NCBI GenBank assembly: GCA_037443365.1
Contig: JBBIOM010000009.1
Coordinates: 13,183 to 60,057 of the forward strand
Reading direction: 5' to 3'
Length of the DNA stretch: 46,875 nucleotides
Source: Armatimonadota bacterium
GTDB taxonomy: Bacteria; Sysuimicrobiota; Sysuimicrobiia; Sysuimicrobiales; Humicultoraceae
The notes below the pieces were generated by a model that saw nothing but the letters and a program-made list of their open reading frames with translations, did not search any database and was not told the DNA's origin. The position numbers were made by a program, and so were the translations under genes. Shown here one piece after another: positions 15,136 to 41,343 of the stretch; position 1 is the first letter of the stretch, and each line of letters starts with the position of its first letter.

Positions 15136-15184
15136 CGCACGTTTGTTCGCCATTCTCTCGCCTTGTCATACGAACAAATGTTCG
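15136..15184. promoter_or_regulatory. Two LexA (SOS/Cheo-type) boxes upstream of lexA
   Basis: CGCAC-GTTT-GTTCG 15136-15149 and perfect CGAAC-AAAT-GTTCG 15171-15184. Confidence 0.9.
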
Positions 15185-15191
15185 CTATGCT
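15163..15191 (+). promoter_or_regulatory. lexA promoter
   Basis: TTGTCA-N17-TATGCT with an SOS box in the spacer. Confidence 0.75.
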
Positions 15192-15208: not shown

Positions 15209-15838
15209 ATGTCCGAACCCCTTACCCGTCGGCAGCACGAGATCCTGCGGCATGTAGCCATGCGTATCCGCCAGACCGGTATCGTGCCGTCGGTGCGCGA
15301 GATCGGCGGGGCGCTTGGCATGCGCTCTCCCTCCACCGTTCACCAGCACCTTGCCGCACTCGCGCGCAAGGGATACCTGCGGCGCGACGGCGACCGGATG
15401 CGCGTGATCGAGATCACCGACCGCACGCCCCTGGGAAGCGAAGAAGACGCGGTCCCGATCCCGCTCATCGGGCGCGTATCCGCGGGCGTGCCGGTCCTGG
15501 CCGAACAGCACGTCGAGGAGATGATCCCGATTCCCCGGCGCTTCGTCGGGTGGAGCAACGAGAGCTTCCTGCTGACGGTGCGCGGGGACAGCATGACGGG
15601 CGCGGGCATATTCGACGGCGACCTGGTGATAGTGCGGTGCCAGGACACCGCCTGTGCCGGGGATGTGGTCGTGGCGCTGCTGCACGACGAGGCCACGGTC
15701 AAGCGCCTGGGTGTGGCGGAAGGCAGGCTCTACCTGCGTCCGGAGAACCCGGCCTACGCGCCCATCCACGGCGAGTTCGAGATACTGGGCAAGGTGGTCG
15801 GCCTCCTGCGGCGCTACCCGGGCGGGGGACCGTCATGA
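15209..15838 (+). CDS. lexA: SOS repressor LexA
   Basis: PSVREIG wHTH, Ala-Gly cleavage site VSAGVP, catalytic GDSM and TVKR; ATG after AGGAGG. Confidence 0.97.
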   Translation: MSEPLTRRQHEILRHVAMRIRQTGIVPSVREIGGALGMRSPSTVHQHLAALARKGYLRRDGDRMRVIEITDRTPLGSEEDAVPIPLIGRVSAGVPVLAEQHVEEMIPIPRRFVGWSNESFLLTVRGDSMTGAGIFDGDLVIVRCQDTACAGDVVVALLHDEATVKRLGVAEGRLYLRPENPAYAPIHGEFEILGKVVGLLRRYPGGGPS

Positions 15839-35302: not shown

Positions 35303-35695
35303 GTGCTCAACAGGATCATACTGATCGGCCGGCTCACGCGTGACCCCGAACTGCGGTACGTCCCCAGCGGACATCCGGTCGCATCGTTCTCGCTGGCGGT
35401 GGACAGGCCGTTTGCCAACCAGCAGGGCGAGCGCGAGACCGACTTCATTGACATCGTGGCCTGGCGCAAGCTCGCCGAGCAGGTCAGCCAGCACCTCAGC
35501 AAGGGGCGCCTTGTGGCCGTCGAGGGCCGGCTGCAGGTTCGGTCCTACGAGACCCAGGACGGGCAGAAGCGCAAGGTCGCCGAGGTGGTGGCGGACGCGG
35601 TCCGGTTCCTCGATAGGAAGGCGACCGGCGCCTCGGCGGCGATCGCCGAGGGCGGGGAGTTCGCCGAGGAGGGCGAGCAGGAGGTCCCATTCTAG
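35303..35695 (+). CDS. ssb: Single-stranded DNA-binding protein
   Basis: [19 protein letters not shown], acidic tail EVPF. Confidence 0.97.
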
Positions 35696-36056: not shown

Positions 36057-37046
36057 GTGATGTCGGCGCGGCGCATTCGCACGCAGGGCCTGACAGAGGG
36101 CGCCATCCTGGCGGCGCTCGTGGCCGTCTTTGCGGTCGCCACGCAGTACCTGCCCCTGGTCGGCATCGCCACAGCCCTGCTCTGCCCGCTTCCGCTGGCG
36201 GTTCTGGTAATACGTCACGGCCTGCGCGTGGCCGCGGTCGCCGGACTCGCGGCTGGCCTGGTCGGCGCGATGCTGGCCGGCCCGCTATTGGGGCTGGCCA
36301 TCCTGGTCTCGTTTGCCCCAATGGGAATCGTGCTGGGTGTGGGCGCCCGCCGGGGCTGGCAGGCCACGCGCGTCGTGCTTACCGCCGGGCTGGTGGCCCT
36401 CCTCACCACGGTCCTGAACTACCTGGGGCTGATGGGCGGTGGCCGGGTGAGCATGGCCGAGATGGCCCGCACCATGGAGCGCAGCGTCGAGACCTCCGCC
36501 GCCATCTATGCGCGGCTGGGGCTCTCCCAGGCCCAGATCGAGACGGTCTCTGCGCAGATGCGCGAGTTCGCGCGCCTGATTCCATACCTGTTACCGGCGA
36601 TGCTGATCTTCGGCGCGCTCTTCGCGGCATGGCTGAACTACGAGGTGGGGCGGCGCGTGCTTGCGCGAGTCGGGTACCGCCTGGCTCCGCTGCCCCCGCT
36701 GCGCACCTGGCGCATCCCGGCCGCGGGGATCTGGCTCGTGCCCATCGCCTACCTCCTGCTGGCGTTGGGATTGCGGTCCGGCGCGCCCGACATTCTGCGA
36801 AGTGCCGGCTGGAGCCTCATGCTGGCCACGCAGAGCGCGTTCACGCTGCAGGGGATTCTGGCCGGCTGGATGATCCTGGGCAACTTCGGGTTCGGCAGGG
36901 TCGCGCAGGTGCTCGCGGTCGCGATCGTCATGACGGTTCCGGCGATGGGCCTGGTGGTCTTCGTGCTTGGAATCCTGGACTCCGCGCTCCTGGTCCGCGA
37001 ACGCTGGGGCCTTGCGCGCGTATCCGCCGGGGGGGAAGACGCGTGA
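36057..37046 (+). CDS. DUF2232 (YybS-like) membrane protein
   Basis: LTEGAILAAL, PLPL, many TM segments; lies between rpsR and rplI. Confidence 0.82.
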   Translation: MMSARRIRTQGLTEGAILAALVAVFAVATQYLPLVGIATALLCPLPLAVLVIRHGLRVAAVAGLAAGLVGAMLAGPLLGLAILVSFAPMGIVLGVGARRGWQATRVVLTAGLVALLTTVLNYLGLMGGGRVSMAEMARTMERSVETSAAIYARLGLSQAQIETVSAQMREFARLIPYLLPAMLIFGALFAAWLNYEVGRRVLARVGYRLAPLPPLRTWRIPAAGIWLVPIAYLLLALGLRSGAPDILRSAGWSLMLATQSAFTLQGILAGWMILGNFGFGRVAQVLAVAIVMTVPAMGLVVFVLGILDSALLVRERWGLARVSAGGEDA

Positions 37047-37489
37047 AGGTCATACTCATCAAGGACGTCCCGGGCACCGGCAAAGCCGGGGCCACCTGCG
37101 AGGTAAAGGAGGGCTACGCGCACCACTACCTTATACCGCGCGGCCTTGCGGTGCCGGCCAGCGAGGGCGCGCTGCGCGCGCACATGCACAGGCAGCAGGC
37201 CGCCAAGAAGCGGGCCGAGCGCGATCGCGCCGAGGCCGATGGGTTGATCCAGGGACTGGAAGGACTGGTGCTCGAGGTGCGCGGCAGAGCAGGGGCCGGG
37301 GGAAAGCTGTTCGGCTCGGTTACGTCCCAGCAGATCGCCGAGGCGCTCGCAGGCCGCGGTTTTGCCGTGGACCGCAAGCAGGTCGAACTGGAAGAGCCCA
37401 TTCGGGTCGAGGGTTTCTACCGCGTTCCGGTGCGCATCCGGCCGGGCCGGGTGGTGAAGATAGACCTCAACGTCATCGGCGTGCGGTAG
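37043..37489 (+). CDS. rplI: 50S ribosomal protein L9
   Basis: MKVILIKDV, VKEGYA..YLIPRGLA, GKLFGSVT. Confidence 0.96.
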   Translation: MKVILIKDVPGTGKAGATCEVKEGYAHHYLIPRGLAVPASEGALRAHMHRQQAAKKRAERDRAEADGLIQGLEGLVLEVRGRAGAGGKLFGSVTSQQIAEALAGRGFAVDRKQVELEEPIRVEGFYRVPVRIRPGRVVKIDLNVIGVR

Positions 37490-37643
37490 GAGACGCCCCG
37501 CACCCAATCCACAGGTTATCCCCGGCGCATCCCGGCACATTTCCTGCTTACGCACAGGTCGTCCCAAAGGAGATGCACAGGCCCGCGGCAGAAGCAGTAC
37601 GCATGGCCCGGCCGCGCCACGATACGCGAGAACCCGTGCACGG

Positions 37644-37672
37644 TTGACTACCGTACATATGTTCGATAGTAT
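37644..37672 (+). promoter_or_regulatory. dnaB promoter with embedded LexA box
   Basis: TTGACT-N17-TAGTAT; CGTAC-ATAT-GTTCG at 37652-37665. Confidence 0.75.
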
Positions 37673-37704
37673 GGTGGCGCGATACCTCCAAGCAGGAGTC
37701 CGCA

Positions 37705-40700
37705 ATGAGCGTGAACCAGCCAGTTGAGCGCGTTCCACCGCAGAACCAGGAGGCCGAGCAGAGCATTCTGGGTTCGATGTTGCTGGAGCGCGACGCCATT
37801 GCGCGCGTCGTGGAAGTCGTGCGCGCCGAGGACTTCTACCGCGACGCCCACCGGCGTATCTACGAGGTGATCACAGAGCTCTTCGAGCGCGGCGAGCCGG
37901 CCGACCTGATCAGCGTTACCGATCGGATGCGCGCGCTCGGCATCCTCGACGACGCGGGCGGGGCGGCATATGTGACCTCGCTGCTGCACGCCGTGCCCAC
38001 CGCCGCCAACGTCGAGTACTATGCGCGGCTGGTGGTGCAGAAGGCGATGCTGCGCCAGATGATCTCCGCCGGCACGCAGATCGTCGGCATGGGGTTCCGC
38101 GAGGACCAGGACGTCGAGCTGTTGCTGGACCAGGCCGAGAAGATGGTCTTCGGGATCGCCAGCAGGAGGATGGGGCAGCACTTCCTCCCGATATCCGAGA
38201 TCCTGCGCGAGAGCTTCGAGCAGATAGACCGCCGCTACCGGGACAAGGGCACGATCACCGGCGTGCCCACCGGGTTCGCCGAGATCGACAAGATAACGGC
38301 CGGGCTGCAGCCCTCGGATCTGATCATCATCGCGGCGCGGCCCTCGATGGGCAAGTGCCTGAAGTTCGACGCCGAGGTGGTGGACGCGTCCACGGGAGAG
38401 GTCCGCACGGTGCAGGAGATGGTGGCCGCCGGGGAGGCCTCGCTCCTCACGCTGGGGCACGACCACAGGTTCCGGCCCGCCGCTCCCAGCCTGTTCGTGG
38501 ACGACGGCCTGAAGCCCGTCTTCCGGGTCAGTACAAGCGGTGGCCGGTCGGTCGAGACAACGCTGACCCATCCCTTCTTGACCCCGTCGGGATGGGAGCC
38601 CCTGGCCGCGCTCTCACCGGGAGCGCTCATCGCCGTTCCGCGGCGGCTCCCGGTGTACGGACGCGCCGATCTGCCTGACCACGAGGTCAAGTTGCTGGCC
38701 TATCTCTGCAGCGGCCGGCTCCCGGCGCGACCGCAGGTCGCGGAGGATTTCTCCGACGCCGCGGCGGCCGCCGAGGCGATCCTGGCCGGGGCGCGTGGCC
38801 GGCGGGCGGCGCAGTCCGGCATCGGCGGCGGCGGCGAGGGTGGGGCCGCGGTGGCCGACCTGTTCTGGCGCTACCCGGAGATGGGGCAGGCGCCGCACCT
38901 GCGCGCGCTGCCCGCCGCGGTGTTTGCGCTTCGCCGCGAGAAGCTGGCGCTCTTCCTCAACCGGCTGATGGGCGCCCTGGCCGAAGTGAGCGAGCACCAG
39001 GACGGCTACCAGGCGCAGGCGGTCTTCCCGTCCGAACGCATGGCGCGCGGCGTGGCGCATCTCCTGCTGCGATTCGGCGTGCCCGCATCGCGGCGCGACC
39101 GCACGCTCACCATGGGAATGGGGGCCACGCTGGCCCTGGTGCGCGAGATCGGCATCTTCGGCCTGGAGCGGCTGCGCAGGTGGGCGCGCAACGCCCAGCG
39201 CTCGCTGCTCGACGAGATCGACGTGATGTGGGAAGAAGTGGTCTCGATCGAGGAGGTCGGGCTGTTCCAGGTCTACGACCTGACCGTGCCGGAGACCCAC
39301 AACTTCGTGGCCAACGACGTCTGCGTGCACAACACCACCCTTGCGCTGAACATCGCCCAGCACGCCGCGCTCACGCAACGGGTGCCGGTTGCCATATTCA
39401 GCCTGGAGACCAACAAGGAGCAGCTCGTCCAGAGGATGCTCTGCAGCGAGGCGCAGGTTGACTCCTCGCGCCTGCGCAGCGGCTTCCTGAGCGACGCCGA
39501 CTGGCCGCGCCTGGCCGCCGCCATGGGAAGGCTGAGCGAGGCGCCGATCTTCATTGACGACTCGAGCACGCTGTCGGCGATCGAGATGCGCGCCAAGGCC
39601 CGCAAGCTGAAGGCCGAGCACGGGCTCGGGCTGATCATCATCGACTACATCCAGATGATCCAGTCGTACAAGCGGTCGGAGAACCGCACCCAGGAGGTCT
39701 CGGAGATCGCCCGCTCGATCAAGTCGCTGGCCAAAGAGCTGAACCTTCCCCTGATCGGGGTGTCGCAGCTCTCCCGGGTGGTGGAGTCAACCGGCAGCCG
39801 CGTGCCGCAGCTCTCGCACCTGAGGGAGTGCGTGACCGCGGACACGGTCGTGTGGGATGCCGATACCGGTCGTCGTCTGACGGTGGGCGACCTGGCCCGG
39901 CAGGCGTCCTGGCCCCGGTTGCTTTCGCTGGACACTACAATGCGGCTGGTTCCGGTTCAGCCGGCCGCCGTGCTAGAGAAGGGCGAGAACGAGATCTTCG
40001 AGGTGCGGACGAGCACGGGCCGGCGTCTCAAGGCGACTGCCAACCACCCGGTGCTGACCCCTGAAGGCTGGAAGGCGGTAGGAGATCTGCGCCAAGGGTC
40101 AATGATCGCCGCCACCCGGCGTCTTCCATTCTTCGGCGCCCGGTCGGCGGCACTGAGACCGGATCGATTGCGGCTTCTCGGTTATCTCATAGGTGATGGG
40201 AGCTACCAGCGGCACCGCGGGATATCGTTCATCAGCAGCGACCCAGGCACGTTTGAGGATTGCATTGCCGTTGCAGAGCGGGAGTTCGGAGTGCAATCGC
40301 GTCGGGGCCAGGCAAACGGGATCCCCGAGGTGGACTTCGTGTCTGTCTATCCCAACGGTGATGCATCCAGCCGCGCCTACGGCCGACCCCATGGAAACCC
40401 GCTCCGAGAGTGGCTTCGCGATCTCGGGGTCGAGGGTCAGTCGGCCCGCAACAAACGAATCCCTGATCGCGTGTTCACCGAGGCCGACCGTGACGGGATG
40501 AGGGCACTGCTTCGAGCCCTCTACTCGACGGACGGATGTCTGACGCGGCGGCGCTACCGCAACGGTGCCTTTCTGTGGTCGCTCCGCTACGATACCGCCA
40601 GTCGGGGTCTGGCTGAGGATGTGCGCGACCTGCTCCTGCGGTTTGGGATCGTTGCGCAGGTCAGCTCAGGCTACATGAGCAAGAAGGCCACTACTCCATT

Positions 40701-41343
40701 GTATCGCGTCACCGTGGAGGATTCCAGGCAGTTAGCAGCGTTCTGCCGGTTCGTCGGCATTGAGGGGCGGAAAGCGGCATTGGCGGAGCGCTGCAGTGCC
40801 GAGTTGCTCCAGCGACGATCGAAGCCCCAGTTAGATCGCTTACCCGTGGCCGCAACGGAGGCTTTGTGGGCTCGCAAGGATGAGGTTGGGCTCTGCTGGG
40901 ACCATCTCGGGTTCCGGCTGCAACGTGGCAAGTCTCTCGACCGGCCGACTGGCGCCCTTCTGGCTCGCAGGCTCAGGGCGTGGGACATCTATCAAATGGC
41001 GACCGGCGACGTACTGTGGGATCGGGTCGTTGGCGTCACGCCGATGGGCAAAGCGCCCGTGTACGACCTTGTCATGCCGGGCACCCACAACTTCGTGGCG
41101 AATGGCTTGGTTGTGCACAACAGCGGGGAGCTCGAGCAGGTGGCGGACCTGGTGATATTCATATACCGCGAGGAGTACTACGACGAGGCCAGGGCGCGGG
41201 CCGAAGGCAGGCAGCACGTGGCCGAGATCCGGGTCGCCAAGCACCGCAACGGGCCCACAGGAAACGTCGAGCTGTTCTTCAACAAGGAGCACGGCCGGTT
41301 CCGCGATCTCGACCGCAAACATGCCGCCACGCCGGGCGCGTAA
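37705..41343 (+). CDS. dnaB: Replicative DNA helicase DnaB precursor with two inteins (455 aa after splicing)
   Basis: PPQNQEAEQS, ARPSMGK|T, IIIDYIQ, SQLSR, KHRNGPTG; 1212-326-431=455 aa. Confidence 0.97.
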   Translation: MSVNQPVERVPPQNQEAEQSILGSMLLERDAIARVVEVVRAEDFYRDAHRRIYEVITELFERGEPADLISVTDRMRALGILDDAGGAAYVTSLLHAVPTAANVEYYARLVVQKAMLRQMISAGTQIVGMGFREDQDVELLLDQAEKMVFGIASRRMGQHFLPISEILRESFEQIDRRYRDKGTITGVPTGFAEIDKITAGLQPSDLIIIAARPSMGKCLKFDAEVVDASTGEVRTVQEMVAAGEASLLTLGHDHRFRPAAPSLFVDDGLKPVFRVSTSGGRSVETTLTHPFLTPSGWEPLAALSPGALIAVPRRLPVYGRADLPDHEVKLLAYLCSGRLPARPQVAEDFSDAAAAAEAILAGARGRRAAQSGIGGGGEGGAAVADLFWRYPEMGQAPHLRALPAAVFALRREKLALFLNRLMGALAEVSEHQDGYQAQAVFPSERMARGVAHLLLRFGVPASRRDRTLTMGMGATLALVREIGIFGLERLRRWARNAQRSLLDEIDVMWEEVVSIEEVGLFQVYDLTVPETHNFVANDVCVHNTTLALNIAQHAALTQRVPVAIFSLETNKEQLVQRMLCSEAQVDSSRLRSGFLSDADWPRLAAAMGRLSEAPIFIDDSSTLSAIEMRAKARKLKAEHGLGLIIIDYIQMIQSYKRSENRTQEVSEIARSIKSLAKELNLPLIGVSQLSRVVESTGSRVPQLSHLRECVTADTVVWDADTGRRLTVGDLARQASWPRLLSLDTTMRLVPVQPAAVLEKGENEIFEVRTSTGRRLKATANHPVLTPEGWKAVGDLRQGSMIAATRRLPFFGARSAALRPDRLRLLGYLIGDGSYQRHRGISFISSDPGTFEDCIAVAEREFGVQSRRGQANGIPEVDFVSVYPNGDASSRAYGRPHGNPLREWLRDLGVEGQSARNKRIPDRVFTEADRDGMRALLRALYSTDGCLTRRRYRNGAFLWSLRYDTASRGLAEDVRDLLLRFGIVAQVSSGYMSKKATTPLYRVTVEDSRQLAAFCRFVGIEGRKAALAERCSAELLQRRSKPQLDRLPVAATEALWARKDEVGLCWDHLGFRLQRGKSLDRPTGALLARRLRAWDIYQMATGDVLWDRVVGVTPMGKAPVYDLVMPGTHNFVANGLVVHNSGELEQVADLVIFIYREEYYDEARARAEGRQHVAEIRVAKHRNGPTGNVELFFNKEHGRFRDLDRKHAATPGA
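38356..39333 (+). mobile_element. DnaB intein 1 (326 aa) in Walker A, degenerate endonuclease
   Basis: GK|CLKFDAEV...TLTHPF...VYDLTVPETHNFVANDVCVHN|T. Confidence 0.95.
39829..41121 (+). mobile_element. DnaB intein 2 (431 aa) with LAGLIDADG homing endonuclease
   Basis: LRE|CVTADT...TANHPV...LLGYLIGDGS...LRALYSTDGC...VYDLVMPGTHNFVANGLVVHN|S. Confidence 0.95.

Follow-up and report, generated by a model that had tools for sequence, protein, structure and literature searches.

The question raised by this locus is whether a bacterial lineage has placed its replicative helicase gene, dnaB, under the control of LexA. The replicative helicase is essential, and its gene is usually treated as a constitutive housekeeping gene outside the SOS regulon; to our knowledge, neither dnaC, the helicase gene of Bacillus subtilis, nor its counterpart in Escherichia coli is listed among the LexA targets. 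The stretch of DNA analyzed here (the window, 46,875 nucleotides in all) comes from a bacterium of the Sysuimicrobiota, and the original prediction was that its dnaB gene is under direct LexA control, through a palindrome placed within the promoter. The article texts searched contain no report of LexA control of dnaB in Sysuimicrobiota: LexA, SOS, and dnaB are absent from the main text of PMC11604079, whose abstract describes chemoautotrophic enrichments of the phylum, and the text of PMC11962464 mentions only the gain of LexA and RecA.

In the window, dnaB follows a row of genes, rpsF-ssb-rpsR-DUF2232-rplI, which were named by their Pfam matches and among which the DUF2232 product is a membrane protein. 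The last of them, rplI, encodes ribosomal protein L9 (37043..37489, + strand; TIGR00158 at 2e-34), and an intergenic region of 215 bp (37490..37704, + strand) separates it from the start of dnaB at 37705. We confirmed that this gap is likely to hold a promoter of its own, as had been proposed, since a scan of positions 36500 to 38500 returned a single sigma-70-like match (9/12 matches; 1 site against 0.2 expected), which is the one in front of dnaB. The predicted promoter (37644-37672, + strand) consists of the -35 hexamer TTGACT (37644..37649), two nucleotides (ac), the predicted LexA-type operator CGTACATATGTTCG (37652..37665), one nucleotide (a), and the -10 hexamer TAGTAT (37667..37672). 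The putative LexA box thus lies where it had been described, in the 17-nt spacer between the two hexamers, and fills 14 of its 17 positions. Judging from the predicted promoter, transcription of dnaB would start near position 37679. The sequencing runs matched to positions 36900-38400 comprised six entries of DNA type from three studies, and no RNA run was among them.

The gene itself (37705..41343, + strand) encodes a replicative helicase precursor of 1212 aa, which scores 517 bits against the DnaB family model TIGR00665 (cut-off, 385) and 940 bits against the intein-containing model NF005852, with Pfam matches to DnaB, DnaB_C, Intein_splicing, and LAGLIDADG_3. Two intein insertions are present, with approximate boundaries taken from HMM coordinates, at about aa 219-543 (nt 38359-39333, + strand) and aa 710-1144 (nt 39832-41136, + strand), in agreement with the claim that the helicase requires two splicing events. 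It had also been suggested that induction of dnaB would bring about that of an intein homing endonuclease. This suggestion clearly applies to the second intein, in which a LAGLIDADG_3 domain was found (2.7e-22); in the first, what is left of such a domain falls short of the threshold (E 0.023; 15.4 bits versus a cut-off of 22.5). The proposed co-induction would be solely a logical consequence of the induction of dnaB.

The weight to be given to the box depends on how it is scored. Compared with CGAAC-N4-GTTCG, CGTACATATGTTCG matches at 9 of the 10 core positions, and, where the GC content is high, a one-mismatch agreement with a consensus so short and degenerate could be a matter of chance. 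The counts of the bare motif are compatible with such a reading: allowing at most one mismatch, the window contains four matches against 2.02 expected, a number (at least four) reached in 15 of 100 shuffles and hence not significant, and 107 matches, most of them intragenic, occur in the whole genome (2.22 Mb, 68.8% GC). Perfect boxes, by contrast, are over-represented between genes, four of the eight in the genome being intergenic compared with 6.4% of intergenic DNA, a share that rests on crude gene calls (2103 genes).

Weight matrices from which dnaB was excluded gave a clearer picture. With a first matrix, derived from five seed sites picked by motif alone, the dnaB box scored 20.7 bits and ranked sixth among about 2.2 million positions, behind only the five seeds; the sites below it reached 19.4 and 17.7 bits and all the remainder no more than 16.1 bits, and the top six sites are all intergenic. 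By chance, a given position would score 20.7 bits or more with a probability of 8e-8, so that about 0.18 such sites are to be expected in a single pass of the genome and about 2-4e-5 in the rplI-dnaB gap. A second matrix was built from 74 sites (29 distinct) found in the lexA1, lexA2, and recA boxes of relatives, this genome being excluded as well; with it, the dnaB box scored 23.2 bits and ranked fourth in the genome. In the scan with the first matrix, a one-mismatch box inside ssb (35347-35360) remained below 10 bits and was rejected as a chance match. The seed sites precede lexA, recA-recX, an operon whose last gene encodes a type-B DNA polymerase, the gene for a DEAH-box helicase, and one unassigned gap; since they were found before repair genes, the motif appears to mark the DNA-damage (SOS) genes of this bacterium.

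The genome encodes two LexA paralogs, and their promoters, together with that of recA, provide the reference for the operator at dnaB. The gene for the first paralog, lexA1 (15209..15838, + strand), encodes a protein of 209 aa (TIGR00498, 206 bits versus a cut-off of 111), and its promoter region (15136..15191, + strand) can be regarded as a reference operator with two boxes. The proximal box, CGAACAAATGTTCG (15171-15184), is located between TTGTCA (15163-15168), from which it is separated by two nucleotides (ta), and TATGCT (15186-15191), from which it is separated by one (c); the distal box, CGCACGTTTGTTCG, occupies positions 15136-15149, and this two-box layout is kept in relatives. The offset of the proximal box, 2 nt after the -35 and 1 nt before the -10, is identical to that at dnaB, as had been noticed at the outset. 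The same arrangement (-35, 2 nt, 14-bp box, 1 nt, -10) is shared by recA, where the operator is CGAACATTTGTTTG, and the promoter of the polymerase operon shows a like geometry except for 0-1 nt before the -10.

The second gene, lexA2 (G000:C4:69555-70172; L219:156-773, - strand in L219), encodes a protein with a TIGR00498 score of 237 bits that is 51% identical to LexA1. Both proteins are full-length, and an Ala-Gly cleavage site and the Ser/Lys residues (GDSM, VK) are visible in the alignment of the two; their recognition helices differ at few positions, with STVHQHL versus STVHSHL plus some flanking residues. A search of 41 genomes returned two LexA matches in nearly every one. The operator of lexA2 in this genome is CAAACACGCGTTCG (+ strand), and in the lexA2 promoters of relatives a conserved CGAACnnnTGTTTGC is located about 20 nt before TGcTAtAAT, overlapping the -35 region.

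Half-sites were tallied in gene orientation at the loci of relatives (L009-L038 and L119-L218), whose kinship means that the tallies overstate the independence of the individual counts. At 30 lexA1 loci, the 5' half-site is CGTAC in 19 cases and CGAAC in 9, and the 3' half-site is GTTCG in 29; at 50 dnaB loci, the 5' half-site is CGAAC (24), CGTAC (20), or CAAAC (6), and the 3' half-site is GTTCG (36), GTTTG (8), or GTTCT (6). The 30 recA loci present CGAAC (25) or CAAAC (4) followed by GTTTG (28), and the 20 lexA2 loci CGAAC (16) or GGAAC (4) followed by GTTTG (20). As for irregularities, L137 and L191, one of them a lexA1 and the other a recA locus, end at a contig edge, and the recA locus L214 is atypical. 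The half-site CGTAC was found at none of these 30 recA and 20 lexA2 loci.

It follows from these tallies that the original description of the dnaB box as carrying one mismatch is correct with respect to the Bacillus-type consensus, but not with respect to the lineage, in which CGTAC is a regular half-site. In particular, the lexA1 promoters of relatives carry CGTAC-N4-GTTCG more often than any other operator form (19 of 30 loci), and CGTACATATGTTCG itself is the usual spacer operator of those promoters, so that CGTAC at dnaB should not be seen as a defect. In B. subtilis, the GAAC core is reported to matter for LexA binding, and the A-to-T substitution of CGTAC falls within this core; the case for binding at dnaB rests, therefore, on the occurrence of CGTAC at lexA1 promoters.

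The conservation of the box was examined in 49 relatives from the phylum Sysuimicrobiota (CSP1-3), for which the set of 94 genomes considered comprises one order and seven families (f1-f7); named relatives in the phylum (Ca. Sysuimicrobiota) are Candidatus Fervidifonticultor and Ca. Geohabitans. At the dnaB promoter, 48 of these 49 relatives, which span all seven families, have a LexA-type box of at least 13 bits (46 of 47 without the unpublished genomes G015 and G024), a count that likewise overstates independence, the genomes being kin. In a first batch (f1, f2, and f7), all 29 relatives carried such a box between positions -160 and -22 of dnaB, in the setting TTGACA, 2 nt, box, 0 or 1 nt, TAnnnT, and none of the 99,940 positions that flank this interval at those loci reached 13 bits. 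In a second batch (f2 to f6), 19 of 20 genomes reached 13 bits; the exception, L184, has only 8.0 bits, yet CGAACGGACGTTTG adjoins its -10 hexamer. The dnaB boxes of family f5 are weaker (8.0-18.9 bits), and three named dnaB loci (L051-L053) attain just 3.0-10.8 bits. In an alignment of eight sequences, the block formed by promoter and box is nearly invariant, including the TTGAC of the -35 hexamer, which shows no change, whereas the preceding 60 columns are rich in substitutions and indels. A chance match, which we regard as extremely unlikely, is contradicted by the matrix rank and the P value as well as by the presence of the box in 48 of 49 relatives and its absence from the flanking positions.

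It had been suggested that conservation be compared between relatives with and without inteins. With the length of the dnaB open frame standing in for the number of inteins (zero, one, or two), we found that the box is kept at frames of about 426-460 aa (G008, G030, G038, and G072), of about 780-830 aa (many genomes), and of at least 1040 aa (others). Since the box is present at every open-frame length, the predicted LexA control does not seem to be tied to the inteins. Outside the phylum, only one of 63 dnaB loci, many of them from Bacillota, reached 13 bits, with a site 191 nt upstream of the gene, and no box was seen at the Bacillota dnaB loci scanned. Thus, dnaB would represent a lineage-specific addition to the SOS regulon rather than a canonical core member.

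Some of the other LexA-marked sites of the genome deserve a description. A perfect box at G000:C8:51436-51449 (L003) is embedded in the consensus promoter TTGACA-ta-CGAACACTTGTTCG-TATAAT, and the operon behind it encodes two proteins without family match (221 and 111 aa) and the type-B DNA polymerase. At G000:C3:96436-96449 (L004), a perfect box lies 25 nt upstream of the gene for the 754-aa DEAH-box helicase, which scores 691 bits against TIGR03817, under the cut-off of 874. The top-scoring box of the genome, CGAACATATGTTCG (G000:C6:56466-56479, L001), falls in a gap without a clear target; the nearest gene, for a FadR/GntR-like regulator, follows about 300 nt downstream, although its start is uncertain. 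A further perfect box, CGAACACCTGTTCG (G000:C3:114942-114955, L005), starts within a gene for an amidohydrolase (carboxypeptidase CpsA-like), 5 nt into its reading frame. No LexA-type box was found upstream of uvrB-uvrA (G000:C30:6552-11418), where the best scores were -2.6 and -0.8 bits, and excision repair (uvrBA) seems to be outside the SOS regulon here. The recA gene of this genome encodes an uninterrupted protein of 359 aa; in the relatives G015, G016, G019, and G029, the recA matches are split or lie within open frames of 630-750 aa, which suggests that recA is intein-interrupted in some relatives.

Promoter geometry, genome-wide rank, and the retention of the box by 48 of 49 relatives all speak for the direct LexA control originally predicted, and we think it very probable that dnaB has a dedicated promoter that is repressed by LexA and inducible by DNA damage. 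The mode of repression can be proposed from the established behavior of LexA operators: a LexA dimer on CGTACATATGTTCG would occupy the spacer and exclude RNA polymerase, and, after DNA damage, RecA filaments would stimulate the self-cleavage of LexA, the dnaB promoter would open, and more DnaB precursor would be made, from which two inteins would then have to be spliced out. Either LexA1 or LexA2 is a candidate for the repressor acting at dnaB. Since dnaB is essential, some expression must escape repression, and basal expression would probably be due to incomplete repression, to read-through from the rpsF-ssb-rpsR-DUF2232-rplI row, or to both; read-through is possible because no intrinsic terminator was predicted on the + strand of the rplI-dnaB gap and the RNA fold of the gap is structurally unremarkable (z = 0.66). 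With a predicted operator kept in the dnaB promoter throughout the phylum, the supply of helicase is probably raised after DNA damage, and this supply may serve fork restart, as first put forward. The small SOS set of the phylum would then include dnaB, lexA1, lexA2, recA-recX, the family-B polymerase operon, and the DEAH helicase gene, without uvrBA.

Two additional features of the region upstream of dnaB could modulate its expression. Three DnaA-box-like 9-mers, CAATCCACA at 37505, TTATCCCCG at 37516, and TTACGCACA at 37548 (37505..37556, + strand), each agree at 7 of 9 positions with the DnaA-box consensus TTATCCACA. These three imperfect matches in 154 nt compare with 0.07-0.17 expected, and a count of three was reached by 0.1% of 2000 shuffles. 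The block is partially conserved in the genus alignment and could possibly provide a second input to the dnaB promoter; related motifs of the TTCCACA type also occur upstream of the dnaB genes of relatives. The other feature is a degenerate palindrome remnant, CAAGCAGGAGTCCG (37689..37702, + strand), matching at 7 of 10 core positions and lying over the Shine-Dalgarno sequence AGGAG (37694-37698). In 13 of 50 dnaB loci, belonging to families f1 and f2, this second palindrome before the start codon is a perfect CGAAC-N4-GTTCG (examples are L016, L019, L021, L024, and L034; e.g., CGAACAGGAGTTCG). Such a palindrome may act as another operator or, in the mRNA, fold into a hairpin that masks the ribosome-binding site.

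The half-site tallies and the presence of two paralogs raise the possibility that the SOS regulon is split, with LexA1 acting through CGTAC-N4-GTTCG at lexA1 and dnaB and LexA2 acting through CGAAC-N4-GTTTG at lexA2 and recA, which would be a refinement of LexA control of dnaB and not a replacement for it. The 3' half-site does sort in this manner, GTTCG being found at 29/30 lexA1 and 36/50 dnaB loci and GTTTG at 28/30 recA and 20/20 lexA2 loci, and CGTAC is restricted to 19 lexA1 and 20 dnaB loci; moreover, both paralogs are maintained in nearly every relative, with recognition helices that differ at a few positions. However, simpler causes can account for GTTTG, which at recA supplies the TG of an extended -10 (GTTTGgTATTCT) and at lexA2 overlaps the -35, and the dnaB boxes of families f3, f4, and f5 carry GTTTG or GTTCT. 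The great similarity of the recognition helices also implies that one protein may bind both types of site with differing affinity, and the tallies of half-sites come from related genomes and are not independent. We consider the split unlikely. In an extended form of the same idea, a two-repressor SOS response would have LexA1 governing lexA1 and the helicase and LexA2 governing lexA2 and recA, with the DnaA-like boxes adding an input from replication initiation; to this combination we assign a rather small likelihood. If it were true, two distinct LexA circuits, each tuned in its own way, would switch replication restart in one case and recombination in the other.

A more radical alternative is that a different regulator binds the palindrome, or that the latter is a mere conserved feature of the spacer, in which case dnaB would not be regulated by damage at all. 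The departure of CGTAC from the classical GAAC core could be read in this sense, and the DnaA-box-like motifs nearby show that other inputs are possible. On the other hand, an equal motif at an equal offset is found in the lexA and recA promoters, both in this genome and in relatives, and the top sites genome-wide belong to DNA-repair genes. In addition, promoter spacers are normally not conserved in sequence, and here the 5-4-5 palindrome is kept even though the N-terminal identity of DnaB drops to about 60%. We consequently judge this alternative very improbable and retain LexA repression of dnaB as the preferred reading.

The promoters marked by LexA boxes in this genome number only about seven or eight; under LexA repression, that of dnaB would be among them, uvrBA being unmarked, and the marked set (helicase, RecA, family-B polymerase, and DEAH helicase) would point to an SOS program centered on replication restart and recombination. 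The natural operator variants described here may also serve to test the specificity of LexA in a setting with two paralogs. From the sequence evidence, the LexA control of dnaB would be a known kind of regulation with a modestly unusual operator form.

Comparison with known systems helps to place these observations. The B. subtilis LexA protein (DinR) recognizes the Cheo-box, a 5-4-5 palindrome of the form CGAAC-N4-GTTCG with an AT-rich center, which overlaps promoter hexamers; LexA is autoregulated, and recA and uvrBA are among its targets. The system predicted here is Bacillus-like in its 5-4-5 palindrome overlapping the promoter and in its putative LexA autoregulation and recA boxes, but the frequent CGTAC half-site is unusual with respect to the Cheo-box, and the assignment of targets is the reverse of that in B. 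subtilis, with a box at dnaB and none at uvrB and uvrA.

Two full-length LexA paralogs in one genome, as found here, are described also for Leptospira interrogans in the text of PMC3789691; in the Sysuimicrobiota, nearly every one of 41 genomes keeps both paralogs. According to a table of the same paper, dnaB of Leptospira was not induced by UV (0.61-fold), so that a link between LexA and dnaB is not general; this, together with the single box of at least 13 bits among the 63 loci from other phyla, is in line with the initial statement that dnaB is no standard core SOS gene.

The closest parallel is offered by Mycobacterium tuberculosis, for which the article text of Smollett et al. 2012 (PMC3381160) reports a LexA motif and a weak chromatin immunoprecipitation (ChIP) signal at the dnaB promoter; the site was obtained by height-based peak calling only, was unconfirmed by BayesPeak, and is presented by the authors as a possible weak site. 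The gene (Rv0058) is induced by damage in a partly RecA-dependent manner, as stated in the text of PMC3381160 and of Brzostek et al. 2021 (PMC8151990), and the M. tuberculosis DnaB carries an intein, according to the text of PMC11377839. Our analysis would extend this poorly supported observation to a whole uncultured phylum. As far as the published texts allow the comparison, the two systems have in common a replicative helicase gene that bears intein sequence and whose promoter region contains a LexA-type motif of the CGAAC-N4-GTTCG family; unlike in M. tuberculosis, the Sysuimicrobiota box fills the core promoter spacer, shares the offset of the lexA and recA boxes, ranks among the top four to six sites of the genome, and is found phylum-wide.
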